64,000 nt of DNA from IMG/VR virus record IMGVR_UViG_2974724996_000001, positions 1 to 64,000 of that record, one strand, 5' to 3'. The notes under the pieces were generated by a model. That model was not told the origin of the DNA. It made no database searches and saw only the letters and a list, made by a program, of their open reading frames with translations. Each line of letters opens with the position of its first letter. Position 1 is the first letter of the stretch. The DNA is from Oliverunavirus OLIVR1 (taxonomy: Duplodnaviria; Heunggongvirae; Uroviricota; Caudoviricetes; Schitoviridae). Below are positions 1,930 through 27,222 of this stretch, in pieces. The position numbers were made by a program, and so were the translations under genes.

Positions 1930-2460
1930 AATACCCAGTAGAGCGACCTGCTGGGGGTAGACGATCTTCCTCTCTGCTGCCGTGGGGGAATGATCTCGGC
2001 AGGTGGGTGTCTGTTGGTTGACGCTTGGGTTCATACCCCTTGCTACGTTGGTTCAATTCCAACCCCACCTGTTTATAATTTAATTAGATGAGTAAGGCTC
2101 GTGTGGACAAGCGCGCTTTAACAACGTCCTAACCTTGTTCCCTTATAGGAGCGTGCGTCTTGCAAGCCAGTACGTTATGCGGGGGATAGTAAACCTTACT
2201 CTTCTAATTAAATTGGGTTACCCGAGTAATGACGGGTATACCCCTTGGCCTTGGTTCTGGGCCTTATACTCAACCTCGTTCTCGTAGTCTGACGGTGATC
2301 AGAATACTCCGATCCCCTGCTTAGGACATAATGGCAGGTAACCCTGAACCGGGGTCATTTGTATAGTCCAGTACATTGCTGGAAGGTCAAGGGTGGGTCT
2401 TAGCTGGCCAGCATACATGTTATGAAGTGGCTACCTCGTTCAATTCGAGGCATTTCATGT
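1930..2460 (+). other. ORF-free structured region with tRNA-like hairpins
   Basis: No credible ORF; T-arm-like hairpins ttggg-ttcatac-ccc, gttgg-ttcaatt-ccaac (+ acceptor-like caggtgg/ccacctg), cctcg-ttcaatt-cgagg; long-range inverted repeat aatttaattagatgagtaagg (2073-2095) / ccttactcttctaattaaatt (2194-2216). Confidence 0.35.
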
Positions 2461-2491
2461 GACCTGCCTATTTAATTTCTGGAGAAAGATT

Positions 2492-2737
2492 ATGATAGTA
2501 ATCAGGATTGAGCTTCACTCAGCCGTAACCCAAAAGGTTACAGAGCTAGGGCGTATGCACATAGCAAACGATGGTAGCTCTCTTGATCCTACTATCGGCC
2601 ATTATGATGGTAAGGTTCTTCGTAAGCCTGACTTCGTTCGTGAAACACGAACTGCCCATGTCCACGGACACAAGAGGCAGGCACTTACAATATGGCATCT
2701 CCTAGGTAAGATGCTCAAGGAGATGGGTTATGTTTGA
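2492..2737 (+). CDS. hypothetical protein
   Basis: ORF with RBS ggagaaag upstream of ATG 2492 (track start 2459 has no RBS). Confidence 0.4.
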   Translation: MIVIRIELHSAVTQKVTELGRMHIANDGSSLDPTIGHYDGKVLRKPDFVRETRTAHVHGHKRQALTIWHLLGKMLKEMGYV

Positions 2738-3023
2738 TAACATATACAAAGCTTGTTTCGCCATAACGTTAGACTACGGCGGACTTAACCGAGATCGCGG
2801 CGAAGACCAGATCAAGGAAGAGTATGCAGACTTCACGGCAACCTATGAGGCTCGCTATCCCGGTGTAGATCTACCGGCTATTGATGCTTGGTTTGGTTCT
2901 CTGGATGATGAGGCCATGGAGGTCGCCACTGCTGGTGAAGAGTCTGAGATGCAGGCTCTCTTTGAAGACGCCCCCGAAGGAGCGTACACTCTGCTCGAAC
3001 ATTGGTTCGAAGAACATTGCTAA
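2730..3023 (+). CDS. hypothetical acidic protein
   Basis: 97-aa ORF, overlaps previous stop; acidic C-terminus. Confidence 0.45.
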   Translation: MFDNIYKACFAITLDYGGLNRDRGEDQIKEEYADFTATYEARYPGVDLPAIDAWFGSLDDEAMEVATAGEESEMQALFEDAPEGAYTLLEHWFEEHC

Positions 3024-3070
3024 TCACGGTAGGCCACCGTGTAGGGTGTTAAGACAATACCCGGAACGAC

Positions 3071-3137
3071 ATCGCTGTAGCTCAGCCCGGTAGAGCATGT
3101 GCGCACAAGGTCGCTGGTTCAAATCCAGTCAGTGATG
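3071..3137 (+). tRNA. tRNA-like element, degenerate (no canonical anticodon arm)
   Basis: Acceptor atcgctg/cagtgat (one G-U), perfect D-arm gctc-agcccggta-gagc and T-arm gctgg-ttcaaat-ccagt, but only 15 nt (palindrome tgtgcgcaca) where the 17-nt anticodon arm should be; total 67 nt. Confidence 0.35.
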
Positions 3138-3236
3138 TCAATCTATTTCAAATCCATCCTGTGGATGGTAGAGGCCAGCATGTCTGATGCAGGGTTCCCT
3201 AGCGGTGCTGGCCTCGTTCTATTAAGGAAACCCTCC

Positions 3237-3524
3237 ATGATCAGAAAGCTTCTTGATTACTTTCGTAATCGTACTCACAAATATAAAGTCGGTGATCGAG
3301 TAATATTTGTCAACGACTTCGGTGTCGTCTATCTATGGACCATTAGCGAGTTGACCACTTGGGAAACCGCCTCGGGGAAGGTCCTCCCAGCCTATCATCC
3401 CATGGGTACCCAGACACCTTGGTTCCCCTATGAGGAGTCTCGTCTCCATAAAGCCACTGATCTTGATAAGATGAGCACCCCTACCGAGCTTCAAAAGAAG
3501 TATGGCTTCACCCCAACTGAATAG
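3237..3524 (+). CDS. hypothetical protein
   Basis: ORF track 3099-3524; start reset to ATG 3237 (RBS aaggaaa) because upstream part overlaps the tRNA-like element. Confidence 0.4.
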   Translation: MIRKLLDYFRNRTHKYKVGDRVIFVNDFGVVYLWTISELTTWETASGKVLPAYHPMGTQTPWFPYEESRLHKATDLDKMSTPTELQKKYGFTPTE

Positions 3525-3959
3525 TATGGTTGTAAATGAAACCTCCTCATCATGTTCAAAACAAAGCAGTTCGTCCTTCATGGAAACAACTTTTCCGTGA
3601 ACTTAAATGCTCCATCTCTGGACATGTTTTCTATGTGGCATGGGGGAATGGCTACCGTGGTTTACCTCAGTCTCATTGTTTTTGTTGTGGTGTCAAAGGT
3701 CCTTCTGCCATTCCTTCTTGCGAAGAGTGGATAGAACCTATCGGTTGAACCAAAGAAATAAACTACTCCCCGAACGAAGTGAGGGGAAAATTACTTCCAC
3801 TAATATTAATTCGTCCATGAATAATGGATGATAGCCGGGGTAGCCCAAGCACAAGGCAAGAGGTTCTGTGAACAACGGAGATAGTGTGAGTAGGGTGGCT
3901 GATCTTCCTTTCAAGGATGCTCATTCACGAGTCTCACCCCCGGCACCAATTTAATCAAA

Positions 3960-4009
3960 GTGTATCTGATGAGTCCTTATTGGACGAAACGCATTAGGGC
4001 GTCATACAC
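3960..4009 (+). ncRNA. hammerhead ribozyme, type I (stem I open), minimal
   Basis: Stem I gtgtat(3960-3965)/atacac(4004-4009); core CTGATGA 3966-3972; stem II gtcc-ttatt-ggac 3973-3985 (G10.1-C11.1 present); GAAA 3986-3989; stem III cgc-attagg-gcg 3990-4001 closed by A15.1-U16.1; cleavage triplet GUC with C17 at 4003. Confidence 0.7.
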
Positions 4010-4284
4010 ACCTAGTAGAGAGCCACTCTGTGCTGCACGCAGATGAACTATGGGCATGTGGGATTGTTACCGGTAGCAGTCCAAGGGGTATAAGCAGAAT
4101 ACTCAAAGCTCTCACTATTAACTTCAAGGAATGATAGACATGGAATATGATTATTCTGAATATGGTTTTTGTTATGTGTTTCATAAACATAAAGTAGTCT
4201 TCATTTGTAGTCGTATAATTACAGAAGGATATCTATCCGCAGGTAGTATTCAATATGAGCAAGACACATTAGGAGAATAATATT

Positions 4285-4518
4285 ATGTCTAATGAACTTA
4301 CGTTAACTGAGCACCGTCAAGAATACATACATGCTAAACGTTTTTACGAAGAGGCAAACGTAAATAAACTAACGCCTCACGTAGCAAAGCATGAAGCACG
4401 GCTTATGGAGTATCATGCACTTTCCATTGTACATTGGGAATGGCGTAATACACCTCTTCCTATCTCGAAAGCAGACTTCCTTTCGCTTAAATCTTTGCAA
4501 GATAAAGCAGGTTTGTAA
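4285..4518 (+). CDS. hypothetical protein
   Basis: 77-aa ORF, RBS taggag upstream. Confidence 0.5.
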   Translation: MSNELTLTEHRQEYIHAKRFYEEANVNKLTPHVAKHEARLMEYHALSIVHWEWRNTPLPISKADFLSLKSLQDKAGL

Positions 4519-4583: not shown

Positions 4584-4662
4584 CCAAGGGTAGTTCAACT
4601 GGTAGAACCCCGGGTAGGTAGCTCCTATCTGGTATATGGAAGTTCAAATCTTCCCCCTTGGG
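4584..4662 (+). tRNA. tRNA-like element, anticodon unassigned
   Basis: Perfect acceptor ccaaggg/cccttgg, D-arm gttc-aactggta-gaac, T-arm ggaag-ttcaaat-cttcc; 29-nt middle lacks a canonical 5-bp/7-nt anticodon arm (best: ggtag-gTAGCtc-ctatc). Confidence 0.4.
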
Positions 4663-4754
4663 CCTCACTAATATTATATTAGTAATCCAGTAGATGATAG
4701 TCTTACAGATGTCAGAGGGTAGGGTACACTGGGGCGCAAGCCCCATAAACTTAA

Positions 4755-7039: not shown

Positions 7040-7438
7040 ATGGGCATTCTCGACACACTCAACGCACGCAACAACTCTTCTGCTGGTCGTTCGGCAGCTA
7101 ACGGCTCTCAGCAGGATCGTCCTGTTGCACAGACGTGGATGAACATCGGTTATGAAGCGAACGGTCAGTTCGTCAATCTGCCGCTGGGCCTCGCCATCGA
7201 CACCATGGAACCCATCAACATCCGTGGCCAGAACGAAGAGTTCGTTGCTCTTCAGACGGCACGTAATGAACTCCTGAAGGAAATTCAGGAACTGGGTGAC
7301 AAACTGGAACCCGGTGCGGTTCTCACACTGCCGCTGACCATCCAGATTCGTCGTGTCAATGACAAGGTGGTCGTTGACAGCGAAAGCAACCCGTTCAGCA
7401 TGGCAAATGCTGGTCTCAAGCTCGTCGCTGCTGAATAA
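7040..7438 (+). CDS. hypothetical protein
   Basis: 132-aa ORF with RBS taaggag; followed by terminator. Confidence 0.6.
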   Translation: MGILDTLNARNNSSAGRSAANGSQQDRPVAQTWMNIGYEANGQFVNLPLGLAIDTMEPINIRGQNEEFVALQTARNELLKEIQELGDKLEPGAVLTLPLTIQIRRVNDKVVVDSESNPFSMANAGLKLVAAE

Positions 7439-11844: not shown

Positions 11845-12026
11845 TTAAGAGAACTCAAATCATTCTTGAACACGGCGATCTATTCAAAGCAATCAAAGAC
11901 CACATTGGCCGACAAGATGGCATGAGTGCCGGTGATGTCTGTAATTTTCACATCTCTTTTGAGAACGACAAACCTGTCGTAACAGTCAATCTCTCTGACA
12001 AGAAGGTAGAAAACAGTGGACTATAG
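11841..12026 (+). CDS. hypothetical protein
   Basis: 61-aa ORF, coupled. Confidence 0.4.
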   Translation: MIKRTQIILEHGDLFKAIKDHIGRQDGMSAGDVCNFHISFENDKPVVTVNLSDKKVENSGL

Positions 12027-12408
12027 TAAAGCAATATTCGTCTTTGGCTCTAATGAAGGCGGTTTCCATGGTGCTGGTGCAGCCAAGTTTGCGCTGGATC
12101 ATAAGGGTGCCATCCTACGTGTCCCTGAAGGCCCACAAGGCCAATCCTACGCAATTCCTACCAAAGATACATCCATTCGCAATACCTTATCTCTTGAAGA
12201 GATACAGCGATACGTAGTTCGCTTCATTGCTTATGCAATGGTTCATCCTGAATTGAAATTCCAAGTCACTCGCATCGGCTGTGGCCTCGCTGGTCTCAAG
12301 GATGAGGAAGTTGCCCCGATGTTCATTGGAGCACCTGACAACTGCTGGTTTGATACCGCATGGGAACCATGGGTAGGTGAGGACCGAAATTACTGGGGCC
12401 ATAAGTAA
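12016..12408 (+). CDS. conserved phage protein, possible Rossmann-like fold
   Basis: 130 aa; N-terminal IFVFGSNEGGFHGAGAAKFA glycine-rich motif. Confidence 0.4.
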   Translation: MDYSKAIFVFGSNEGGFHGAGAAKFALDHKGAILRVPEGPQGQSYAIPTKDTSIRNTLSLEEIQRYVVRFIAYAMVHPELKFQVTRIGCGLAGLKDEEVAPMFIGAPDNCWFDTAWEPWVGEDRNYWGHK

Positions 12409-12629
12409 TGGACAGCGTTAGCGACTGGCCATTCAACCCCGCAGGAGGCATCTTTGTTACTGTGGCTGGAAACAATAGCTTTGGGATTAGTAAGGATAAT
12501 CGGCTTATCCATTTTCCTACTAATGGAACAAACTCAGAAGAGGTTAAAGACCTCGGGCCTGCTACGGCCAGAAACATCGAGTCGCTTAAATACGCTCTTG
12601 AGCGACTTGCTATCCACTCAACAGACTAA
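12408..12629 (+). CDS. hypothetical protein
   Basis: 73-aa ORF; protein-like composition, preferred over the overlapping 5' extension of the next ORF. Confidence 0.4.
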   Translation: MDSVSDWPFNPAGGIFVTVAGNNSFGISKDNRLIHFPTNGTNSEEVKDLGPATARNIESLKYALERLAIHSTD

Positions 12630-12648
12630 TGATCCAAAGGAGAAAGCC

Positions 12649-13464
12649 GTGGACTTGCAGACTGCACAAATCGATATGGAGAAAATGTTCCATAAAAACC
12701 AGCTTCATAGCCGGATTAAAAAGGAATTCGTAAACTCAGATATCGACTTCCGGACCGCTTTTACTGAGATCGGTATTGATCATAAATTCGGGTTCGACCT
12801 ACTTGTGCAAATGGTTCTGTATAAGCGTGTCAACCTCCCAACGCTTGTTGGTATCCTGCGTCGTCATTATCAGGGCGATTGCCAAAAGACCGCTGACGCT
12901 CTCTTGACGGCAGCAAAGCACAATCTAGTTGATTGGGCTGCAAACATCGAAGTCTTCATCATTCGCTTTGATATTGATGCTGAAGTGATGAATGAAATTG
13001 AAGTCTATCAATACCCACTTCCCATGATTGTGGAACCAAAGGAACTGAGGAACAACCGTGACACAGGTTACTTCACTAAAAAGGACTCTGTGATCCTCAA
13101 GAGCAACAACCATCATGATGACGATGTGTGTTTGGATTTCTTGAATAAGATTAATAAAGTAAAGCTCAAGGTCAATTCTGACACTGTAGCTTTCCTCAAA
13201 AATAACTGGAAGAACCTCGACCGTCCAAAGCCCGGTGAAGAACGTTCAGAATATCAGAAGCGTGTCAAGGCTTTCAACAAATATGACCGGACTTCCAAAG
13301 ATGTCCTGACTCATTTGGAAACCATGGGTGGAGAGTTCTATCTTACCCACAAATATGACAAGCGTGGCCGTGTTTATTGTCAAGGTTACCATGTAACTTA
13401 TCAAGGTAATGACTGGAACAAAAGTTGTATAGAATTTGCGCATGGAGAGTTAGTTGAAGACTAA
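12649..13464 (+). CDS. T7-like single-subunit RNA polymerase, small subunit (N4 RNAP II p4A-like, N-terminal half)
   Basis: GTG 12649 with RBS aaggag; 271 aa ending ...YDKRGRVYCQGYHVTYQGNDW..., matching the T7 RNAP DWRGRVYAV...NPQGND region; stops where 17656-18867 resumes the alignment. Confidence 0.7.
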   Translation: MDLQTAQIDMEKMFHKNQLHSRIKKEFVNSDIDFRTAFTEIGIDHKFGFDLLVQMVLYKRVNLPTLVGILRRHYQGDCQKTADALLTAAKHNLVDWAANIEVFIIRFDIDAEVMNEIEVYQYPLPMIVEPKELRNNRDTGYFTKKDSVILKSNNHHDDDVCLDFLNKINKVKLKVNSDTVAFLKNNWKNLDRPKPGEERSEYQKRVKAFNKYDRTSKDVLTHLETMGGEFYLTHKYDKRGRVYCQGYHVTYQGNDWNKSCIEFAHGELVED

Positions 13465-13978
13465 GAAATTACCGCCACAAGATTACCTTATCGAACGGCT
13501 CTATTATGATCCGGTATCAGGTTGCCTCTGGTGGCGGGAGCATCCTGCCATGCACAAGAGGTGGAACAATAGGTACGCTAATCAGCGTGCCTTTACTGCT
13601 CAAGATAAGAAAGGTTACCATGTAGGTGCAATAAACGATGTGCAGTATCGAGCTAATCGTATCATCTTCAAAATGCTCTACGGTTACGACCCTATTCAAG
13701 TAGATCACGATAATGGGGTCACTAATGATGATCGTGTAGTAAATCTTATCGAAGTAACCCACACAGGTAATCAACGAAACATGAAACTATCCAAGGCCAA
13801 TAAGTCAGGGGTAGTTGGTGTTTCGTGGAATACTGAAAAAGATATGTGGGAAGCCACCATCGGCATTAAAGGTAAACGTGTCGTGATTGTCCGTTCGCCC
13901 AATAAACAAGTTTGTATTGACGCTCGTCGTCAAGCCGAAATTGATGAGGGATATCATCCCAGTCATGGAAAACGATAG
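13454..13978 (+). CDS. HNH homing endonuclease with AP2 DNA-binding domain
   Basis: TTG start overlapping the upstream stop; VDHDNGVTNDDRVVNLIEVTHTGNQRN is the HNH_3 motif; GVVGVSWNTEKDMWEATIGIKGKRV is AP2-like. Confidence 0.8.
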   Translation: MKTKKLPPQDYLIERLYYDPVSGCLWWREHPAMHKRWNNRYANQRAFTAQDKKGYHVGAINDVQYRANRIIFKMLYGYDPIQVDHDNGVTNDDRVVNLIEVTHTGNQRNMKLSKANKSGVVGVSWNTEKDMWEATIGIKGKRVVIVRSPNKQVCIDARRQAEIDEGYHPSHGKR

Positions 13979-14333
13979 TGGAGTTCGCTCATGGGGAACT
14001 CTTGGAGGATTAATGCCTAATCCTGGTAACCATCCCAAATGCCCTCGTTGTAAAGGCGAGGGCTTCTACCTTGCCTATGAGGGCAAGGGATACATGTATG
14101 ACGGTTCCTTCTCCCACAATCGGTGGGAGGACTGCCGCTGTTACCCTGAGATAAAGGAGAGCGAATTGCCTCGCTCCCTCGATCCGCCGCCAATTTATAC
14201 CATTGTGCATCATCCGAAGAACCCGAAGCAATGGTACTGGCTCATCATTCACCGTGATCGGAGAGGCTCCTTTAGGCGTCCTCAACGTATCCACACATTG
14301 GGATTGGATGGAATAAGTGGAGAGTGTTTCTAA
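13965..14333 (+). CDS. zinc-ribbon protein (CPRC...CRC)
   Basis: Start set to ATG 13965 in track ORF 13887-14333; two Cys pairs. Confidence 0.35.
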   Translation: MENDSGVRSWGTLGGLMPNPGNHPKCPRCKGEGFYLAYEGKGYMYDGSFSHNRWEDCRCYPEIKESELPRSLDPPPIYTIVHHPKNPKQWYWLIIHRDRRGSFRRPQRIHTLGLDGISGECF

Positions 14334-14622
14334 AGCCAGACATCGTAAACAAGCTGCCCTCATTAGGAAACTGAAGAGAGAGCTTCGGGATGCCCAATAC
14401 AAACGGTACGTCATTCGAATGCAATGGCGTTCCGGCAAGTGCAACGGTGATCCAAGAAATTGGAGATCGTGGCGTACCTTCGCATCCGTACCTATCCTCT
14501 TCTATTCTGAGGAGGAAGCATGGGGCTATTTCTATGAGCACGATGTACTGAAGAATGCTGGCCGTAAGGCATCAGCATCTGTGGAAGTCGTCTGGCTACC
14601 GGAGAAAATCAATGAAAGCTGA
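14317..14622 (+). CDS. hypothetical basic protein
   Basis: 101-aa ORF. Confidence 0.4.
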   Translation: MESVSKARHRKQAALIRKLKRELRDAQYKRYVIRMQWRSGKCNGDPRNWRSWRTFASVPILFYSEEEAWGYFYEHDVLKNAGRKASASVEVVWLPEKINES

Positions 14623-14959
14623 TCTAATCTTACCCGATGGCAGCGTACTTGAATACAAAAGTGTGAATGACTCATTAGCTGATGATCGTTATCGGCTTTT
14701 GGTTATTGATGACATGTGTGCTGTTAATCGCTTCATGAACGGTCACGATGTAGCTCTGACTGAAAGCGAACAGACCATCCTTTATCGATTTGTCGCTGAC
14801 GAATTTGATAGGCAGATGGAAAACATGTTGTTCCGTGCTCCCATCCGTAAACCTTACCAGCCTGTGGATTACCACAGCACCAAAATTGGTAAGACCCGAG
14901 CTAAGCTTCTCAAGAAACGAGCCAAGGACAAAGCCAACCGCAAGAGGCCAAGGAAGTGA
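14612..14959 (+). CDS. hypothetical protein
   Basis: Start set to ATG 14612 (RBS ggagaaaa). Confidence 0.4.
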   Translation: MKADLILPDGSVLEYKSVNDSLADDRYRLLVIDDMCAVNRFMNGHDVALTESEQTILYRFVADEFDRQMENMLFRAPIRKPYQPVDYHSTKIGKTRAKLLKKRAKDKANRKRPRK

Positions 14960-15423
14960 GCAGATACAAGGAAGACATCAAAGCAGGCGACAAGGTTATA
15001 TGCCTTGTCGGCTACTATAAATCATATGGGATCGGGGACATAGCAACAGTTGTACGTCTCGACATCAGCGGTGCAGGTAACCCTGTTCTCATCCTCAAAA
15101 ACCCCCTCAGTGACTGCGGCACATCGATGTATTCCGTCGATAACTGGAAGTTCCACAGCAGACCCAAGGAGATTAAACACATGGGCTACGCTCGTACCCT
15201 CTATTTCGCTGGCAAGCTCGCCAACTTTGTTGAAGAGCAGGGCCAAATCCCACGCATCTCTGATCGTACCATCGGACGGCACAGCAAGTCCGAGGTGATC
15301 AAGGACGTTCGTGCCGTCATTCAAGACGGTGAACAGTGGGTTGTCCTTCAGACTGTTGGCTTCATCAAGACCAAAGAACCGGTACCGGAACTGGCACAGG
15401 TCGAATTTACCGAGTGCCGCTAA
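14956..15423 (+). CDS. hypothetical protein
   Basis: 155-aa ORF, GTG start overlapping previous stop. Confidence 0.45.
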   Translation: MSRYKEDIKAGDKVICLVGYYKSYGIGDIATVVRLDISGAGNPVLILKNPLSDCGTSMYSVDNWKFHSRPKEIKHMGYARTLYFAGKLANFVEEQGQIPRISDRTIGRHSKSEVIKDVRAVIQDGEQWVVLQTVGFIKTKEPVPELAQVEFTECR

Positions 15424-15469
15424 TTTCTTTTCCTCGGCTCGGTTAACCGAGTAATCAGGAGAATAATCA

Positions 15470-15586
15470 ATGTTCTTCAAACTCATCGGGGTCATTGTGA
15501 TCCTCGTCACCTTGGTAGTAGGGGCTTACTGGTTAGCCACTAATATCGGTTTCAACAAGAACCAGAAAACAAAGAAGAGGAAGTGA
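15470..15586 (+). CDS. tiny single-pass membrane peptide (38 aa)
   Basis: ATG 15470 with RBS aggagaa; MFFKLIGVIVILVTLVVGAYWLATNIGF then a lysine-rich tail; immediately precedes the SPFH gene. Confidence 0.4.
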   Translation: MFFKLIGVIVILVTLVVGAYWLATNIGFNKNQKTKKRK

Positions 15587-15591
15587 CTCAA

Positions 15592-16440
15592 ATGAGTCTG
15601 CGTTCAATCATCGGCCTGCTGTTTGCAGGTATTATCGGAGTAATCACCCTTGGCGTCATCGGCGGATCGTTCTATACGGTCGATGAAGGTGAAAAGGCAG
15701 TCATCCTCCGTAACGGTGCCGTCACCGGCATTGCTACTCCCGGGTTTCACTGGAAAGCTCCTTTCCTCGACTCAGCCGTGGACATCTCCCTGCGTGACGA
15801 GACGATCACCTTCGATGAAGTCAAGGCTTACACCAAGGACAGCCAGACAGCGACCGTGCATCGTATTTCCATCACCTACCGTGCGAAGCCCGGTAATGAT
15901 GACGTGCTTGCCATATATAGCCGTTATGGCTCGGTTAAGAATGCTGTCAGCCAGATGGTCACACGTCGCGTCAGCGAGTCCCTCGAAACTGTATTCGGCC
16001 AGTTCACTGCCGACACAGCAATCAAGGAGCGTGAAAAGCTTGGTCAGGAATTCTCCAAGCGTATCCGCAACATTGATGGTCCCGTTGAAATCCTCTCTGC
16101 TCAGATCGAGAACTTCTCTCTGCCTGACAGCTATGAGCGGAACATCGACGCCAAGATGAAGGCTGAAGTTGCTGAAAAGCAGGCGGAAATCGATAACCGT
16201 ACAGCGGTTGCCAATGCCAACGCTGCTGCCACTGTCAAGAGGACAGAGGCTGATGCCTCTGCCCATGCTGTTCGGGTGCAGGGCGAAGCTGAAGCTGCTG
16301 CTCTCCGTGCCAAGAACGATGCCATCAAGGAGTCTCCGAACCTGATTGAGCTTACAAAAGCTCAGCAGTGGGATGGAAAACTCCCAACTACATTCGTTCC
16401 CGGATCGGCTGTTCCATTTCTGAACCTGCCATCTAACTAA
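15592..16440 (+). CDS. SPFH/band-7 (stomatin/prohibitin/HflKC-like) membrane protein
   Basis: N-terminal TM helix followed by ...YTVDEGEKAVILRNGAVTGIATPGFHWKAPFLDSAVDISLRD... typical of SPFH domains; alanine-rich coiled-coil C-terminus. Confidence 0.7.
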   Translation: MSLRSIIGLLFAGIIGVITLGVIGGSFYTVDEGEKAVILRNGAVTGIATPGFHWKAPFLDSAVDISLRDETITFDEVKAYTKDSQTATVHRISITYRAKPGNDDVLAIYSRYGSVKNAVSQMVTRRVSESLETVFGQFTADTAIKEREKLGQEFSKRIRNIDGPVEILSAQIENFSLPDSYERNIDAKMKAEVAEKQAEIDNRTAVANANAAATVKRTEADASAHAVRVQGEAEAAALRAKNDAIKESPNLIELTKAQQWDGKLPTTFVPGSAVPFLNLPSN

Positions 16441-16509
16441 ATAACCTTTTTGGTTTCCTGATCTACGGATCAGGTTTCCCAACAAGTTACTCAAATAAGG
16501 AGACAAGTA

Positions 16510-16701
16510 ATGGCTGAACCAAAGGAAATACCCACATATACAGCGATGTATTATATAGAAGCTGGTTATCTCCACAAAAAATCCTTCATCGGTAACGACC
16601 ATGAGGACGTGCTGAAACAGATCAAGGCCGACGAAGGCGACAAAGTCGAGATCGTTGCCATCTGGATCGGGGACATTCCTGATCCCATTTGGATTGGTTA
16701 A
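16510..16701 (+). CDS. hypothetical protein
   Basis: 63-aa ORF, RBS taaggag. Confidence 0.45.
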   Translation: MAEPKEIPTYTAMYYIEAGYLHKKSFIGNDHEDVLKQIKADEGDKVEIVAIWIGDIPDPIWIG

Positions 16702-16704
16702 GCT

Positions 16705-16983
16705 ATGGATCCTCAGCATTACCCTACACTGTCTACATATCGCCGTAGGAAGCTCAGGGAAGCGTATGTCGAGGAACAAGAGGGCAAGTGCCACCACTGC
16801 CATCAACCCCTCTCAGGGGAGCCAAATCAAAAGGTGAGACGTGCTTCTATTAATGAGAGCCGTTTTCCTGTTGGCTTCTTCAAACATCCTGTCCATCTTC
16901 ATCATAATCACAATACTGGTATGACCATCGGTGCGGTCCATGCCAAATGCAACGCAGTCTTATGGCAGTATCATGGTGAGTAA
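16705..16983 (+). CDS. endonuclease VII-like HNH nuclease
   Basis: CHHCH ... HLHHNHNTGMTIGAVHAKCNAVL matches the endonuclease VII family pattern (CxxC ... DHDH.TG..RG.LC..CN). Confidence 0.6.
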   Translation: MDPQHYPTLSTYRRRKLREAYVEEQEGKCHHCHQPLSGEPNQKVRRASINESRFPVGFFKHPVHLHHNHNTGMTIGAVHAKCNAVLWQYHGE

Positions 16984-17655
16984 ATGGTCAACTGAGACTG
17001 CCTTAAAAGCATCCGGAATACGGGTTCCTCTGAACCCGTTCAAGAGGAAACGGAAACGCAATCAGCAGGACCGGTTCCTCAACAAGAGGGAAGCATCTGA
17101 GCATCCTTCTCATCACGCGAAAAGGTGAAAAATGTTCGAACTGACGGCGATCCGTCTAAGTAGTGATCGATGGTGAAGCAGGAGAGGCACGCAGTCTTTG
17201 CGCAATAACCTAAACTGGTCATGAATGACAGTTACTGGTCTTTGAAAAGAAAGTAAGAACTCATAAAGAAACGATTAGCTCTTGATCGATGTCAAGGCCA
17301 CGAAAGGGTGGTTACCTTAAATTCCAAAAGAGTTGTCATCCAAGGATGGAGACGATTTCCGGTCTCTGCAAAACCGGTACATATAGCCAAAACCACATAT
17401 GACGCTAGGTCGTGGTAGGCATTTGTCGCTCAGCCCATTTGGGTATTCGGAGTGAGAACTACTCTAGGCCCGCTAACTGCCCTCATCAGTAAAGCCCGCC
17501 AATCATCATCAGGTGACTCTACGATCCAGCAACACTGCATGTATGAAATACGTGTAATGCTATGACGATAGCAACGGGAGCACGTCCCACGATACAGTCA
17601 CTGCTGCGATCAATAGCGCCATCGCTATTACTGAACCTATTAGTCTAATAAGGAG
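16984..17655 (+). other. 672-bp ORF-free region immediately upstream of the RNAP large-subunit gene
   Basis: No ORF over 30 codons with an RBS on either strand; many local inverted repeats; ends at RBS taaggag. Confidence 0.4.
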
Positions 17656-18867
17656 ATGACTATGTTTGAAACCTTCACTGCCAAGCAGTACCTGAAGATC
17701 GATATCGCCAACAACTTCGGTGATAACCTTGATAAGGCCCTGTGGCAGGATCGTATCAAGTGGTTTGATGACAATGAACATCAGCTTGAAGCAATTGCCA
17801 AGAATGCTGATGAGCCTGCTCTTTATTGTGCAGGTGTACGAGCATGGCGTAATGCCCAAAAAGGCAACGTCAACCATTACCCAATCTCTCTGGATGCAAC
17901 ATCATCCGGAATTCAAATTCTGTCTGCACTCACCGGTGACCGCAAGGGAGCCGAAGTATGCAACGTAGTGGATGTTGGCGAGCGACGTGATGCCTACAAA
18001 TTTCTCTATGAAATCATCGTCAAGAAGATCAACGGCACTGCCAAGATCGACCGCAAGGATACTAAGCGGGCTATCATGACGGCTTTCTATAATTCTGAAG
18101 CTGTTCCGAAGGAGGTCTTTGGAGAAGGTCAATTGCTCACCACCTTCTACGAAACCATGGGTGAAGAGGCTCCCGGTGCGTGGGAACTTAACGAAACCAT
18201 GAAGGACCTCTGGAACCCAAAAGCTCTTAGCAATGACTGGGTTATGCCTGACAACTTCCATGTTCACGTAAAAATCATGGGCCAACAAACTGATTATGTT
18301 CAGTTTTTAGATAAACCCTATGAAGTAACCTATGCAATCAATACCTGCATCGAAAAGGGTCGTTCATTAGGCGCTAACATGACGCACTCTATTGACGGCA
18401 TGATCGTTCGTGAAATGGTTCTGCGTTGCAACTACGACCAGAAGAGCATTGTATGGCTTCTTGGTCTGTTGGAAGGCAAAGCCTCTATCGAAGCGAACCC
18501 AGAAAACAGTAAAATGATGCAGACACTCTGGGGTCATTATACTGACTGTGGTTTTCTCTCCGCACGTATCCTTGACTATCTCGATGATGAGTCCATCAAG
18601 TTGGTCGATAAAGTCGTAATCTTCGATCTTATTGCAAGTCTTCCGAAACATCCTTTCGAAGTTATTGCAGTACATGATTGCTTCCGTTGCTTGCCAAACT
18701 ACGGCAATGATCTTCGTCGTCAATATAACCAGCTTCTTTCCAATATTGCCAAATCTGATTTGCTTAGCTTCTTGCTTTCGCAAATTATAGGTAAACTGGT
18801 AAAGGTTGGTAAGCATGATCCAGAACTCTGGAAAGACATCCTCGAAAGTAACTACGCACTTTCTTAA
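17656..18867 (+). CDS. T7-like single-subunit RNA polymerase, large subunit (N4 RNAP II p4B-like, C-terminal half)
   Basis: 403 aa; ISLDATSSGIQILSAL (T7 LAFDGSCSGIQHFSAML), KRAIMTAFYNS (motif B KRSVMTLAYGS), NMTHSIDGMIV (NFVHSQDGSHL), IAVHDCFRCLPNY (motif C HDSF). Confidence 0.85.
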   Translation: MTMFETFTAKQYLKIDIANNFGDNLDKALWQDRIKWFDDNEHQLEAIAKNADEPALYCAGVRAWRNAQKGNVNHYPISLDATSSGIQILSALTGDRKGAEVCNVVDVGERRDAYKFLYEIIVKKINGTAKIDRKDTKRAIMTAFYNSEAVPKEVFGEGQLLTTFYETMGEEAPGAWELNETMKDLWNPKALSNDWVMPDNFHVHVKIMGQQTDYVQFLDKPYEVTYAINTCIEKGRSLGANMTHSIDGMIVREMVLRCNYDQKSIVWLLGLLEGKASIEANPENSKMMQTLWGHYTDCGFLSARILDYLDDESIKLVDKVVIFDLIASLPKHPFEVIAVHDCFRCLPNYGNDLRRQYNQLLSNIAKSDLLSFLLSQIIGKLVKVGKHDPELWKDILESNYALS

Positions 18868-18875
18868 TACCTTGG

Positions 18876-18905
18876 CCTCACACTTCGGTGTGGGGTCTTT
18901 TTAAT
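18876..18905 (+). terminator. rho-independent terminator
   Basis: cctcacac-ttcg-gtgtgggg then tctttttaattt. Confidence 0.7.
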
Positions 18906-18933
18906 TTATCTACGATAGTCTTGGAGATATATA

Positions 18934-19290
18934 ATGTTAATGGAAAATCGAGAGGCAATTCTTGCTCGTATTACTGACCGTATATTAATCCAAGATTTAG
19001 GCTTTCTCCTGAATGGAGTTCCTAGCCCTTGTCATATTTGGCAAGGTGGGACTTCAGGAAACGGCAGAGGCGGTGGCTACGGACGGATGTCCCTGTACGG
19101 ATGTACTACAGCGGTTCACATCGTCATGTGGCGACTTCACAATGGTCCTATCCTGCCTAAAAGGCAAATTGACCATATGTGTAATAACCGCCTCTGCTGT
19201 AATATTCTTCACCTTCAAATGGTGACCAATCTCAAAAACCAAAGGCTTAGAGCCAAGAGAGCTAAGGAGGCTCTATACTACCATGTCTGA
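18934..19290 (+). CDS. HNH homing endonuclease (HNH_3 type)
   Basis: 118 aa; G..GYGR...G...AHIVMWRLHNGPI...IDHMCNNRLCCNILHLQMVTNLKN. Confidence 0.75.
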   Translation: MLMENREAILARITDRILIQDLGFLLNGVPSPCHIWQGGTSGNGRGGGYGRMSLYGCTTAVHIVMWRLHNGPILPKRQIDHMCNNRLCCNILHLQMVTNLKNQRLRAKRAKEALYYHV

Positions 19291-19356
19291 CAATGTTCTC
19301 GCATACGGCCTGCTGTTGAGCAGGTACAGGCAATTCAAAAACATCTGTACTAAGTG

Positions 19357-19390
19357 AAGCCCTCCTAGAAATAGGGGGGCTTTTTTATAT
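19357..19390 (+). terminator. rho-independent terminator
   Basis: agccctcc-tagaaata-ggggggct then tttttat. Confidence 0.7.
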
Positions 19391-19407
19391 CAATAAGGAG
19401 TCAAGTA

Positions 19408-19911
19408 ATGCGAAGACTATTTGTCGATCTTGATGGGGTCATGGCAGATTTTGATACTCATTTCCGTAATCTTTTCAATTGCGATCCCCCCAGTAAAATA
19501 GGGGGCGTAAACGATGATGAAATGTGGAAGCTTATTCATGATAAGGGGGATTTCTTTGAAACCATACCTGTCTTCGAAGGGACATTGAGTTTCTGGAAAA
19601 AGATCACAGATTATGCGGATTTTGACCCCATCATCCTCACTGCTGCTTCTAAAAAGCATTACCATGCAATGGCGATCCAAAAGAGAAAATGGGTTCGTCA
19701 GACGTTGTCAACAGAGCATTTGATCCTTCCTGTATGGGGATCTTCCTCCAAGACACTTTTCATGCACGCCCCCGGCGATGTTCTAATCGATGATTACAAG
19801 AAAAATTGTGATCGTTGGAATGCTGCTGGTGGTTACGCTATCCACCACACCGACTTTGATAAGTCCTTCAAGGAACTTATTGAAATAATGGAAACCCCTT
19901 TCTTTGGATAA
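19408..19911 (+). CDS. HAD-superfamily phosphatase, 5'(3')-deoxyribonucleotidase-like
   Basis: N-terminal FVDLDGVMADF is HAD motif I (DxDG[TV]); 167 aa, the usual size of phage dNMP nucleotidases. Confidence 0.55.
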   Translation: MRRLFVDLDGVMADFDTHFRNLFNCDPPSKIGGVNDDEMWKLIHDKGDFFETIPVFEGTLSFWKKITDYADFDPIILTAASKKHYHAMAIQKRKWVRQTLSTEHLILPVWGSSSKTLFMHAPGDVLIDDYKKNCDRWNAAGGYAIHHTDFDKSFKELIEIMETPFFG

Positions 19912-25419: not shown

Positions 25420-27222
25420 GTGATGTCTAATAAAGATATCATTACTGTAGTAGGCGCCGTGGCCGATAAGGATAAGGTAGTCTTCTACACAGACACAGGT
25501 GATAAACGAATTGTTCCTCAATCCGATCCTCGCCTTGCTGTTCTGCTTCAAAAGGTCATCCCGGAAATCCAGCGTGGCCGCAGTGTCACTGTATCCCTTG
25601 AGGATTACAGCCTCTATGAGGAGTTCGAAAAGAAAACGAACAGTCTTGTTCGTTTCTTCCGTGCTGCCAAAGAGAAAGTCAAAACCATCGTGGAAGCCTT
25701 CATTCCTGCTGCTCCTGAAAAGGACGACAGTGATGTAGAAGAGGATACCAAGGCGTATCATGCCAAGGTCACTGCTGAAGCTGAAATAGCTGTGGATGCT
25801 GTAGCAACTGAGACTCTTCTTGAAGAGGCTGAAAAGGTGGCTCCTGTAGTTCCCCAAAAGCCTCGCTATGAGGATCTCAAGCAAGATCTCAAGCCAATCA
25901 AAAATGATGAGCCAATCGCAGACGATGAGACCCTTGTGGCTGTCATCAATGGCGTTGCCATCCCCGGTGTTGAGAACCTGAAAAGCTATATTCAGCACGC
26001 TCTGAAACATAACTCTCCCAAGGCTGTCACTGCGTTCTTGGAACGTATCGCCCGAGTAATTGACCAACGTGGTCACTCTATTCCGGACCTGATGCGTTTC
26101 CTTGAACGCGGTGATCTGCCTCTGGCAGAAGACGGCTCGATCATTGCCTATAAAATCCTGCGAAAGACTGATCGTCATCCAGGATTTACCTATGTGGATT
26201 GTCATTCCGGCAAAGTCCATCAGAGAGTAGGTACCTATGTTCGAGTTGACGAAAGTCTGGTTGATAAGAACCGCCGTAACGAATGCAGCAATGGTCTCCA
26301 TGTTGCTCGTCGTGGCTATATCGGCCACTTCAGTGGGGATGTTTGCACCATCATCAAGATGGCTCCTGAAGACGTGATTGCTGTTCCTCACAACGATCCC
26401 AATAAGGTTCGTGTGTGCGGTTATCACATCATCTTCGAACTCCCCAATCACGTTTATAACGTGCTTCGTTCCAATCGCCCCATGACCTCTGATACCGAAG
26501 CAGCAGCAATGCTGGCCAAGGCCATCAGTGGTGACCATGTGGGTGTACTGGAAGAGGTCTGGATTGGTGGTTCCTATGGAAGCAACCTTTCCATTAAGAA
26601 CCGTGTGGACGGATATAAAGCAACTTCTGAAATTCAGAAGACCAAAGTGGACAAGACCGAGAAGGTCTCGAAGAAAGCTGCTGCTTTTGACGATGCTACC
26701 AAAAATGGCATCGATCCCCGTCAACTCAACCAGAAGATCAAGGAAGAAAATTCCAAGATCGCTGAAGAGAAGAAGGCTACCGGTTCTCTTTCGATCTCTG
26801 ATCGCGCTCGGGAAATGTTCAACAGACAGCTTTACGCTGATGTGAAGGCACTTTCAAAGACCAAGAAGAAGAGCCTTCGTGCACTCGGTTTCAATGAGAA
26901 CGAAATCGACACCATCAATGTTGGTCATGCCACAGAGACTCTTGTTGTAAAACAGGAAACTCCCAAAGCGGAACCAAAGAAGAAGGTTGAAAAACCTGCT
27001 TCGTCTAAGGCTACCAAGCCGGTGAATGTCAAAAACGATCCTCCGGCTGAACCTGCAAAGCCGGGTCTTCTGGACGGAAAGGATCTGACTGAGCAAGAAG
27101 TCCTCTACTTGAAAAACAAGTGGGAGGAGCTTTATGCACTCAAGAAGAAAAAGAAAAAGTCTTGGGTAGCACTTGGTTTTTCGACCAAGGAAATCGAAGA
27201 TATCGAAAAGAACAAACCGTAA
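25420..27222 (+). CDS. rIIB: rIIB-like protein (by position), Lys/Glu-rich C-terminus
   Basis: 600-aa ORF immediately after the rIIA-like gene; no motif recognised, call is positional. Confidence 0.35.
   Translation: MMSNKDIITVVGAVADKDKVVFYTDTGDKRIVPQSDPRLAVLLQKVIPEIQRGRSVTVSLEDYSLYEEFEKKTNSLVRFFRAAKEKVKTIVEAFIPAAPEKDDSDVEEDTKAYHAKVTAEAEIAVDAVATETLLEEAEKVAPVVPQKPRYEDLKQDLKPIKNDEPIADDETLVAVINGVAIPGVENLKSYIQHALKHNSPKAVTAFLERIARVIDQRGHSIPDLMRFLERGDLPLAEDGSIIAYKILRKTDRHPGFTYVDCHSGKVHQRVGTYVRVDESLVDKNRRNECSNGLHVARRGYIGHFSGDVCTIIKMAPEDVIAVPHNDPNKVRVCGYHIIFELPNHVYNVLRSNRPMTSDTEAAAMLAKAISGDHVGVLEEVWIGGSYGSNLSIKNRVDGYKATSEIQKTKVDKTEKVSKKAAAFDDATKNGIDPRQLNQKIKEENSKIAEEKKATGSLSISDRAREMFNRQLYADVKALSKTKKKSLRALGFNENEIDTINVGHATETLVVKQETPKAEPKKKVEKPASSKATKPVNVKNDPPAEPAKPGLLDGKDLTEQEVLYLKNKWEELYALKKKKKKSWVALGFSTKEIEDIEKNKP

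Follow-up and report, generated by a model that had tools for sequence, protein, structure and literature searches.

An HNH endonuclease gene and a duplicated rnap1 tail in the variable spacer between the RNA polymerase II subunit genes of Agrobacterium phage OLIVR1

The genome of Agrobacterium phage OLIVR1, an N4-like phage (Schitoviridae, Oliverunavirus), carries the genes for the small and the large subunit of RNA polymerase II (RNAP II), rnap1 and rnap2, at a distance of 4.2 kb from each other. This locus probably combines two layers, namely an old spacer of variable gene content and a single insertion of a selfish element, encoding an HNH endonuclease, into the final ~14 codons of rnap1. 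The analysed stretch of DNA (referred to as the window) comprises 64,000 nucleotides (nt) and corresponds to positions 1-64000 of MT234338.1 (OLIVR1), with the region 12400-19300 matching at 100% identity; the sequences of phages OLIVR2 and OLIVR3 are the same over this locus. The paper on the OLIVR phages (PMC10132094) contains no discussion of the rnap1-rnap2 region. An initial annotation, made from the sequence alone, had interpreted the whole 4.2 kb as a cassette brought in by a homing endonuclease.

The HNH gene and the duplicated rnap1 tail

The HNH gene is a free-standing open reading frame (ORF) of 174 codons on the plus strand (13454..13978). It starts with TTG, preceded by GGAGAG, and overlaps the stop of rnap1 by 11 nt in another frame, in agreement with the overlap pointed out initially. 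The protein matches the Pfam family HNH_3 (E 8e-10, residues 65-108), with the DH...N...N residues present, and PHROG 99 over residues 1-173 (E 4e-44); full-length homologues favour the start at 13454 over that in GenBank (13550). The designation HNH-AP2 used in the initial annotation is appropriate as far as the HNH domain is concerned, whereas Pfam finds no AP2 domain in the protein at E values as high as 10; the AP2 domain (PF00847) is present in a homologue 38% identical to the OLIVR1 protein. The gene is thus an intact ORF with an HNH (His-Me finger) domain and its own Shine-Dalgarno (SD) sequence, located outside an intron or intein. An intron-borne endonuclease was rejected, as no Rfam intron family is found over 12000-19600 at E up to 1, and so was an intein, because rnap1 ends with a stop codon and the HNH gene is in another frame.

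Comparisons were made with 86 N4-like loci (isolates and IMG/VR contigs retrieved with a large-subunit profile; locus numbers begin with L) and with L140, an 8.6-kb Logan contig that is the closest relative found (72% identity in rnap1, 69% in rnap2). The related genomes are polymorphic for the presence of the HNH gene at the 3' end of rnap1: it is present in OLIVR1-3, L140, L141, L142-144, L015, L058, and roseophage EE36phi1, and missing from Ochrobactrum phage ZX86, L010, N4, and most of the 86 loci. In a collection of 5.8 billion proteins, the three nearest homologues of the HNH protein (60, 51, and 50% identity) are all encoded directly 3' of rnap1 in N4-like contigs. The HNH gene is a homing-type insertion with a putative homing activity.

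The scar of the insertion is a second, displaced copy of the rnap1 3' end. The final ~14 codons of rnap1 (about 13423-13464) encode KSCIEFAHGELVED followed by the stop. At the other side of the HNH gene, whose stop codon sits at the junction, lies an untranslated remnant of the native rnap1 3' end (13969..14013, plus strand), encoding KTIVEFAHGELLED and a stop and recognizable by its 10 matches in 12 residues as well as by alignment of the junction with ZX86, L140, and L010. When the window was scanned in six frames (~128,000 positions) with the last 12 residues of rnap1, the real tail matched at 12/12 and the remnant at 10/12, while the rest reached at most 5/12. Over the last 16 codons, the functional tail and the remnant share 3 identical codons and differ by 8 synonymous and 5 residue-changing ones. 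The stop of the remnant overlaps the start of the next gene in a TAATG junction (14011-14015); in ZX86, the homologue of that gene starts at the rnap1 stop itself, with the same TAATG, and the two phages are collinear across this junction. The remnant also includes GGAGGA just ahead of ATG 14013. The order is therefore that of a mobile ORF (mORF): replacement tail (13423-13464), HNH gene (13454-13978), and displaced tail (13969-14013).

The nucleotide sequences suggest which of the two copies is foreign. The remnant agrees with the native tail of the HNH-less L010 at 33 of 45 nt and with the functional tail of OLIVR1 at 27 of 45, as compared to 29 of 45 between L010 and the functional copy, although these are small counts from a comparison that lacks a close element-less sibling. 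The final 18 nt of the functional tail are identical in OLIVR1 and L140, and the same nt encode the start of the HNH protein. The inserted unit, as delimited by the two tail copies, is ~546 bp long and consists of the replacement tail and the HNH ORF, with the native tail displaced downstream. The right edge of the insertion is consequently placed at ~13968, and not at 17661. Hence, the idea of an insertion driven by a homing endonuclease holds for ~0.55 kb with its scar, and fails for the remainder of the 4.2-kb spacer. No remnants of rnap2 ends are found in OLIVR1 at E below 0.05.

Recurrence of the arrangement in N4-like phages

The succession of rnap1, HNH gene, and tail remnant also occurs in L140, L141, L058, and EE36phi1, so that at least five N4-like genomes show this footprint. 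The 11-nt overlap is seen in L140 as well, where the remnant (KACIEFAHGESIDA and a stop) is fused to the homologue of the gene at 14013; the corresponding remnant in L141 is KSVVEFTNKEVVKDK and a stop. In EE36phi1, orf8 (39% identity to the OLIVR1 HNH protein) overlaps the RNAP1 stop and is followed by the remnant DYNKAVLELSRKEVING with its stop; the latter differs from the functional tail (EYNKAVLELSRKEVIQG and a stop) by 8 synonymous changes and 1 non-synonymous change. The tail copies of L058, an IMG/VR contig, differ by 11 synonymous and 2 non-synonymous changes. Although the sample is small, these lineage-specific remnants with their mostly synonymous differences argue for repeated and fairly recent invasions rather than for one ancient event. 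At least two nuclease families are flanked by duplicated rnap ends, and, as far as known, this recurrent footprint in phage RNAP II genes is undescribed in the literature on N4-like phages.

Further cases involve other gene ends. An HNH gene related to that of OLIVR1 follows rnap2 in L018, accompanied by a 43-codon remnant of the rnap2 tail. Around a nuclease ORF of a different family, the rnap1 tail is duplicated in L078 and the rnap2 head in L017. The duplicated ends are found at 7859-8547 in L078, 9264-9847 in L058, and 1514-2093 in L146 (EE36phi1) for the 3' end of rnap1, at 9258-9998 in L017 for the 5' end of rnap2, and at 11219-11924 in L018 for its 3' end. In three independent genomes, rnap2 itself is interrupted after residue 140, in motif B (L009, i.e., JWAlpha, 2371-4387; L089, 8816-10792; L086, 4907-6428); in L086, 8 residues are common to both rnap2 pieces, and the insert between them is only ~290 bp long. 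In Pectobacterium phage Possum (L145, 1-2275), two HNH genes bracket rnap2, the downstream one being 43% identical to that of OLIVR1, and no remnant of the rnap2 tail is detected beside them.

The polymerase subunit genes

The two subunit genes are full-length homologues of those of N4 and, judged by their sequences, encode an ordinary N4-type heterodimeric RNAP II. The small-subunit gene, rnap1 (12649..13464, plus strand, 271 residues), has a GTG start with AAGGAG as SD sequence 7 nt upstream; its residues 7-269 align with residues 7-268 of N4 RNAP1 (PDB ID: 6dt7_A, 269 residues; E 1.7e-88). The start at 12649 given in the initial annotation is preferable to the GenBank start at 12523. The ORF of the large, catalytic subunit (17656-18867, 403 residues) matches N4 RNAP2 (PDB ID: 6dt7_B, 404 residues) from end to end (residues 5-403 versus 2-404, E 5e-145). 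These alignments bear out the initial identification of the 271- and 403-residue products as the N4 RNAP II subunits. As AAGGAG at 17650-17655 directly abuts ATG 17656, rnap2 likely starts at the second ATG, 17662 (17662..18867, plus strand, 401 residues).

The large subunit contains motifs A (DATSSGIQ), B (RKDTKRAIMTAFY), and C (VHDCF). On T7 RNA polymerase it begins at about residue 458 and covers 458-586 (motif A), 625-642 (motif B), and 724-842 (motif C region). The motif assignment made initially is correct in placing B and C in the large subunit; SGIQ, by contrast, lies within motif A and not after it. In yeast mitochondrial RNA polymerase, the small-subunit profile covers residues 725-767 and the large-subunit profile 772-940, confirming that the two products are contiguous on a single-chain polymerase. 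The split between rnap1 and rnap2 falls at one shared residue across all N4-like phages, and the polymerase was therefore split long before the HNH insertion; the suggestion that the insertion might have split a polymerase gene pair is not supported. For N4 gp2, Pfam gave no match for the ORF 7040-7438.

Directly 3' of rnap2, a hairpin with a 10-bp stem (6 GC pairs) followed by TTTTT resembles an intrinsic terminator (18874..18897, plus strand) and is the first strong one downstream of rnap1; no comparable plus-strand terminator was found between 13464 and 17662. The next gene (18934-19290) encodes a second 'homing endonuclease' (118 residues, HNH_3), which is a homologue of N4 gp22. This homologue is kept downstream of rnap2 in ~30 of the surveyed N4-like loci, and because of this wide conservation it behaves as a conserved resident rather than as a patchy mobile gene.

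Distance between the subunit genes across N4-like phages

The distance between rnap1 and rnap2 is 4191-4197 bp in OLIVR1, as compared to 47-50 bp in N4, where the genes are adjacent, as had been stated initially. In the 86 loci, spacer lengths extend from -1 to 3521 bp, the median being 770; the spacer is shorter than 150 bp in only 10 of them, which makes adjacency the exception, and exceeds 1 kb in 34. According to tblastn tables of isolated phages, it measures about 340-600 bp in Klebsiella and Achromobacter N4-like phages, 0.5-2.7 kb in all rhizobial ones, and 2.5 kb in ZX86. The OLIVR1 spacer is longer than all 86, yet it lies on a continuum with them. Adjacency of the subunit genes, which OLIVR1 does not show, is thus true of N4 but does not define the family. 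A recognizable nuclease ORF occurs in the spacer of only 9 of the 86 loci, which form an unbiased set, so that nucleases are not a general explanation of the spacers.

Separated subunit genes are already on record and thus not new with OLIVR1. Insertions of ~2 kb between them were reported for two roseophages (Zhao et al. 2009, PMC2784036), and insertions of small genes were noted by Wittmann et al. 2014 (PMC3915230). Amgarten et al. 2017 (PMC5418858) counted 0-8 spacer genes, found HNH genes between the subunit genes of G7C and EE36P1, and proposed that a homing endonuclease had split an ancestral T7-like gene.

Gene content of the OLIVR1 spacer

The spacer contains nine genes, including the HNH gene, and 0.5 kb of non-coding DNA. 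All nine are on the plus strand, where alone a codon-usage score trained on OLIVR1's own long genes is positive, with frame switches exactly at the ORF boundaries given here; the signal on the minus strand is an antisense shadow. The first gene after the remnant (14013..14333, 106 residues) encodes a cysteine-rich protein (CxxC...CxC); its homologue ZXL86_30 comes immediately after rnap1 in ZX86 (53% identity, phmmer E 7e-35), and another occurs in L140. Its start is shifted from the 13944 of GenBank to 14013 on the basis of homology, and comparison with these genomes identifies it as the gene that ancestrally followed rnap1 directly. It is followed by a gene unannotated in GenBank (14317..14622, 101 residues; coding score in frame +1), with spacer homologues in L051 and L013, and by a gene of 115 residues from ATG 14612 (14612..14959; coding score in frame +2), whose ORF opens at 14555 and whose spacer homologues are weak (L010, E 0.0035; L140, E 2e-5). 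The next gene (14956..15423, 155 residues) has spacer homologues in L010, L013, L140, and the Rhizobium phages N38, Y38, and RHEph16; GenBank shows the antisense ORF gp49c here instead, while the coding score prefers the plus strand.

A further spacer gene (15583..16440, 285 residues) encodes an SPFH/Band 7 membrane protein (Pfam Band_7, 2.9e-29; PHROG 200, 6e-52). It is homologous to N4 gp20 by tblastn, the N4 counterpart being located downstream of rnap2, and GenBank puts 'band 7-like' on the minus strand. A gene of 63 residues (16510..16701; coding score in frame +1) has a spacer homologue in L010 (E 1e-6). The product of the following gene (16705..16983, 92 residues) resembles zinc-binding endonuclease VII (PHROG 14729, 2e-33; Pfam Endonuclease_7, 5e-4, under the curated cut-off), and homologues with 55-61% identity are present in the spacers of N38, Y38, RHEph16, L013, and L140. 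The last small gene (16931..17128, 65 residues) is matched by a homologue that immediately precedes rnap2 in L140 (49% identity, E 1e-12). There is no informative Pfam match for the small spacer proteins.

The spacer genes are tightly packed, with overlaps of 4-17 nt. Because of this packing, and as the first strong terminator is found after rnap2, the block is likely co-transcribed with the polymerase genes and predicted to end at that terminator. Homologues of spacer genes occupy the same position in ZX86, L010, L013, L051, L140, and the Demetervirinae, and the order of the gene at 14956, the gene at 16705, and rnap2 is kept in relatives. The 3.1-kb spacer of L140 contains the shared genes in the same order, without the Band 7 gene, the gene at 14317, and the ORF-free stretch. 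Altogether, relatives carry homologues of seven spacer genes between their own subunit genes. Conservation of the intervening genes in related phages was the observation named in advance as speaking against an inserted 4.2-kb cassette, and, with these genes common to relatives, the 4.2 kb is not one inserted cassette.

The ORF-free stretch upstream of rnap2

The stretch immediately upstream of rnap2 (17129..17661) has no positive coding score in any frame and is absent from L140. Several explanations of it were rejected. A decayed gene or nuclease remnant in 17100-17665 was sought by tblastn with 733 spacer ORFs of relatives and by tblastx and blastn against all loci, which returned noise only. 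Rfam gave no match in the stretch at E up to 1, the search covering 12000-19600. A structured RNA in 16984-17655 has fold z-scores of -4.1 and -3.5, which are not distinctive in comparison to eight coding segments of equal length (-0.8 to -8.8) or the reverse strand (-4.3). The most extreme of these eight controls (ten segments were folded altogether) is 26000-26671, a 672-nt segment in a rIIB-like gene, with z = -8.8 versus shuffles. A shared promoter-like motif is likewise not supported, as 11 recurring 11-mers were found versus about 17 expected and a sigma-70 scan revealed no enrichment.

The deposited annotation of the region

The MT234338 annotation of 12000-17600 (gp42-gp56) is largely wrong. 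The record labels 12523-13464 as 'RNA polymerase I', 13550-13978 as an HNH endonuclease, and 17662-18867 as 'RNA polymerase II', with a mixture of hypothetical genes on the plus and minus strands between them. The frame of gp47 is wrong, wrong start positions are given for rnap1, the HNH gene, and gp46, and five plus-strand genes with homology support are absent. The minus-strand genes gp49c-gp54c, two 'band 7-like' entries among them, were rejected as antisense shadows, since the codon-usage score and all homology favour the plus strand. Upstream, gp42 is an overlapping out-of-frame ORF, and gp43 is the C-terminal part of one N4 gp14-like gene (12016-12408, 130 residues, 55-64% identity to relatives). 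Strands, frames, and starts need correction over ~5 kb of the OLIVR1 record here. Elsewhere in the window, ARAGORN predicts, at 40274-40350, a tRNA-like gene whose anticodon has four bases (ccta), and assigns the tRNA at 4584-4664 to Ala(agc), versus Thr in GenBank.

Origin of the insertion

If the HNH gene is a single insertion into an older spacer, the mobile unit would comprise a replacement rnap1 tail, holding the ribosome-binding site and TTG start of the HNH gene, and then the HNH ORF. During mixed infection, the enzyme would cut the conserved WNK(A/S)xIEF-coding sequence of an element-less rnap1 allele, and repair templated by the HNH-carrying genome would bring in the replacement tail together with the HNH gene. 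A crossover resolved within the tail homology would leave the recipient's own tail as an untranslated remnant, which would remain joined to the beginning of its former neighbour gene. Being recoded at synonymous sites, the functional copy would be protected from re-cutting and from deletion by recombination between the repeats. Cleavage, the target site, and current mobility are assumed here by analogy with fungal mORFs and with intronless homing in T4. The spacer of this lineage would be an old block of small same-strand early genes that changes gene by gene; in OLIVR1 it holds, beyond the shared backbone, the SPFH/Band 7 gene, one extra small gene, and ~0.5 kb of ORF-free DNA.

Several points weigh against this explanation. 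No HNH-less sibling of OLIVR1 is found in phage (by megablast), IMG/VR, or metagenome collections, where the best matches have 53-72% protein identity, and therefore the left boundary of the insertion is not exactly mappable. OLIVR1-3 are identical at the locus, thus giving no sign of recent mobility. The remnant is short (14-15 codons), and the distinction between native and foreign copies depends on small counts (33 versus 29 of 45 nt). Between OLIVR1 and L140, the HNH proteins share just 60% identity, which is compatible with one old insertion and vertical descent. The origins of the Band 7 gene, found downstream of rnap2 in N4 and between the subunit genes here, and of the ORF-free 0.5 kb are left unaccounted for.

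The alternative that survives best, though it is rather unlikely, considers the HNH gene as old, vertically inherited, and now immobile or domesticated, acquired once by the ancestor of several N4-like lineages, with the remnant kept for the translation signals of the next gene. At this site, the HNH proteins share only 38-60% identity with one another and roughly track the divergence of their host phages, as vertical descent would predict; the conservation of the last 18 nt of functional rnap1 between OLIVR1 and L140 points the same way. Persistence of the remnant would then need another cause, for which its GGAGGA just before ATG 14013, as a possible ribosome-binding site of the next gene, is a candidate. 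However, the distribution of the gene is patchy: it is missing from ZX86 and L010, the closest relatives without it, as well as from the majority of N4-like phages. Moreover, the remnant of each lineage carries that lineage's own tail sequence with mainly synonymous differences, as expected if it was part of a working gene until recently, whereas in a neutral relic dating back as far as 30% protein divergence the reading frame should no longer be intact.

A more far-reaching proposal, which must be regarded as improbable, is that this HNH lineage is a dedicated 'tail-swapping' homing element of N4-like phages, resident at the point where the ancestral single-chain polymerase is split, and that it, or a similar ancestor, may have split a T7-like RNA polymerase gene into rnap1 and rnap2, the spacer later growing there by accretion of genes. 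A split of this origin, by a homing endonuclease, was already hypothesized by Amgarten et al. 2017 (PMC5418858), for which the OLIVR1-type HNH gene would provide a concrete candidate with a mapped, if putative, homing site.

The initial proposal of one cassette, brought in its entirety by a homing endonuclease between originally adjacent genes, has become very hard to maintain. It accords with the adjacency of the subunit genes in N4, with the position of the HNH gene at the left edge of the spacer, and with a spacer GC content (0.47-0.53) somewhat above that of the flanks; nevertheless, the same GC content is reached elsewhere in the genome, and nuclease-free spacers of up to 3.5 kb are common. 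For six to seven spacer genes, relatives carry homologues in the corresponding spacer, with identities similar to those of the polymerase genes, and the tail remnant ends the HNH insertion long before rnap2. Finally, local illegitimate recombination or replication slippage without involvement of an endonuclease, which can produce short duplications, is scarcely credible as the source of the duplicated tail, as the same duplication flanks an endonuclease ORF in eight or more independent loci, involving three different gene ends, with copies that differ at most synonymous sites and hence did not arise by recent duplication in situ.

Comparison with known systems and significance

The RNAP II of OLIVR1 resembles that of coliphage N4 (gp15/gp16, PDB ID: 6dt7), with subunits 52% and 54% identical, the same split residue, and motifs A, B, and C in the large subunit, and its neighbourhood likewise includes gp14-like, gp20-like, gp22-like, and gp24-like genes. 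Unlike N4, OLIVR1 has the Band 7 (gp20-like) gene between the subunit genes, an HNH gene overlapping the rnap1 stop, and 4.2 kb instead of 47-50 bp. It shares with the 'G7C-type' arrangement (PMC5418858, PMC2784036) the separation of subunit genes by unrelated genes, sometimes with an HNH gene directly after RNAP1, and with EE36phi1 the HNH gene at the same site and the same tail remnant. The OLIVR1 spacer is longer than those of all 86 surveyed loci, and the duplicated rnap1 tail is absent from those published descriptions. HNH endonuclease genes also invade the N4-type RNAP II genes of Achromobacter phages JWAlpha and JWDelta and of Pseudomonas phage ZC08 (PMC3915230, PMC5418858). In those phages the large-subunit ORF is broken after residue 140, whereas both subunit ORFs of OLIVR1 are intact because the element supplies a replacement tail.

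A close parallel is provided by the mORFs of fungal mitochondria, which swap the C-terminus of atp6, atp9, cox2, and nad3, for example in Allomyces macrogynus (atp6) and Glomus sp. (Beaudet et al. 2013, PMC3630166). As in these, the endonuclease ORF of OLIVR1 is located near the 3' end of the host gene, with an in-frame replacement C-terminus before it and the displaced native C-terminus after it, and the tail copies are similar in protein and diverged in DNA. The differences are the phage host, an HNH rather than a LAGLIDADG or GIY-YIG nuclease, a far shorter duplication (14-22 codons), and an HNH ORF that is not fused in frame but starts inside the last codons of rnap1 in another frame.

T4-like phages possess free-standing homing endonucleases, Seg and Mob, that spread by 'intronless homing', as well as genes split by such elements (nrdA/mobE of Aeh1 and gene 60/39 with mobA of T4). 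The OLIVR1 gene is similar to them as a free-standing nuclease gene between or within conserved genes, patchily distributed and presumed to cut the neighbouring allele that lacks the element. To our knowledge, no element of the Seg/Mob type has been reported to come with a recoded second copy of the end of a neighbouring gene.

Spaced polymerase genes are the usual state in N4-like phages, and the OLIVR1 locus is not to be read as a recent 4-kb insertion. The recoded duplicate tail constitutes a footprint, at the level of base pairs, that a homing endonuclease has left in a gene for phage transcription, and implies the sequence encoding WNK(A/S)xIEF as the target. The 'C-terminal swap' architecture of fungal mitochondria has a cross-kingdom parallel in phages. 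This HNH lineage may also be relevant to marker exclusion when N4-like phages, themselves biocontrol candidates, compete with one another.

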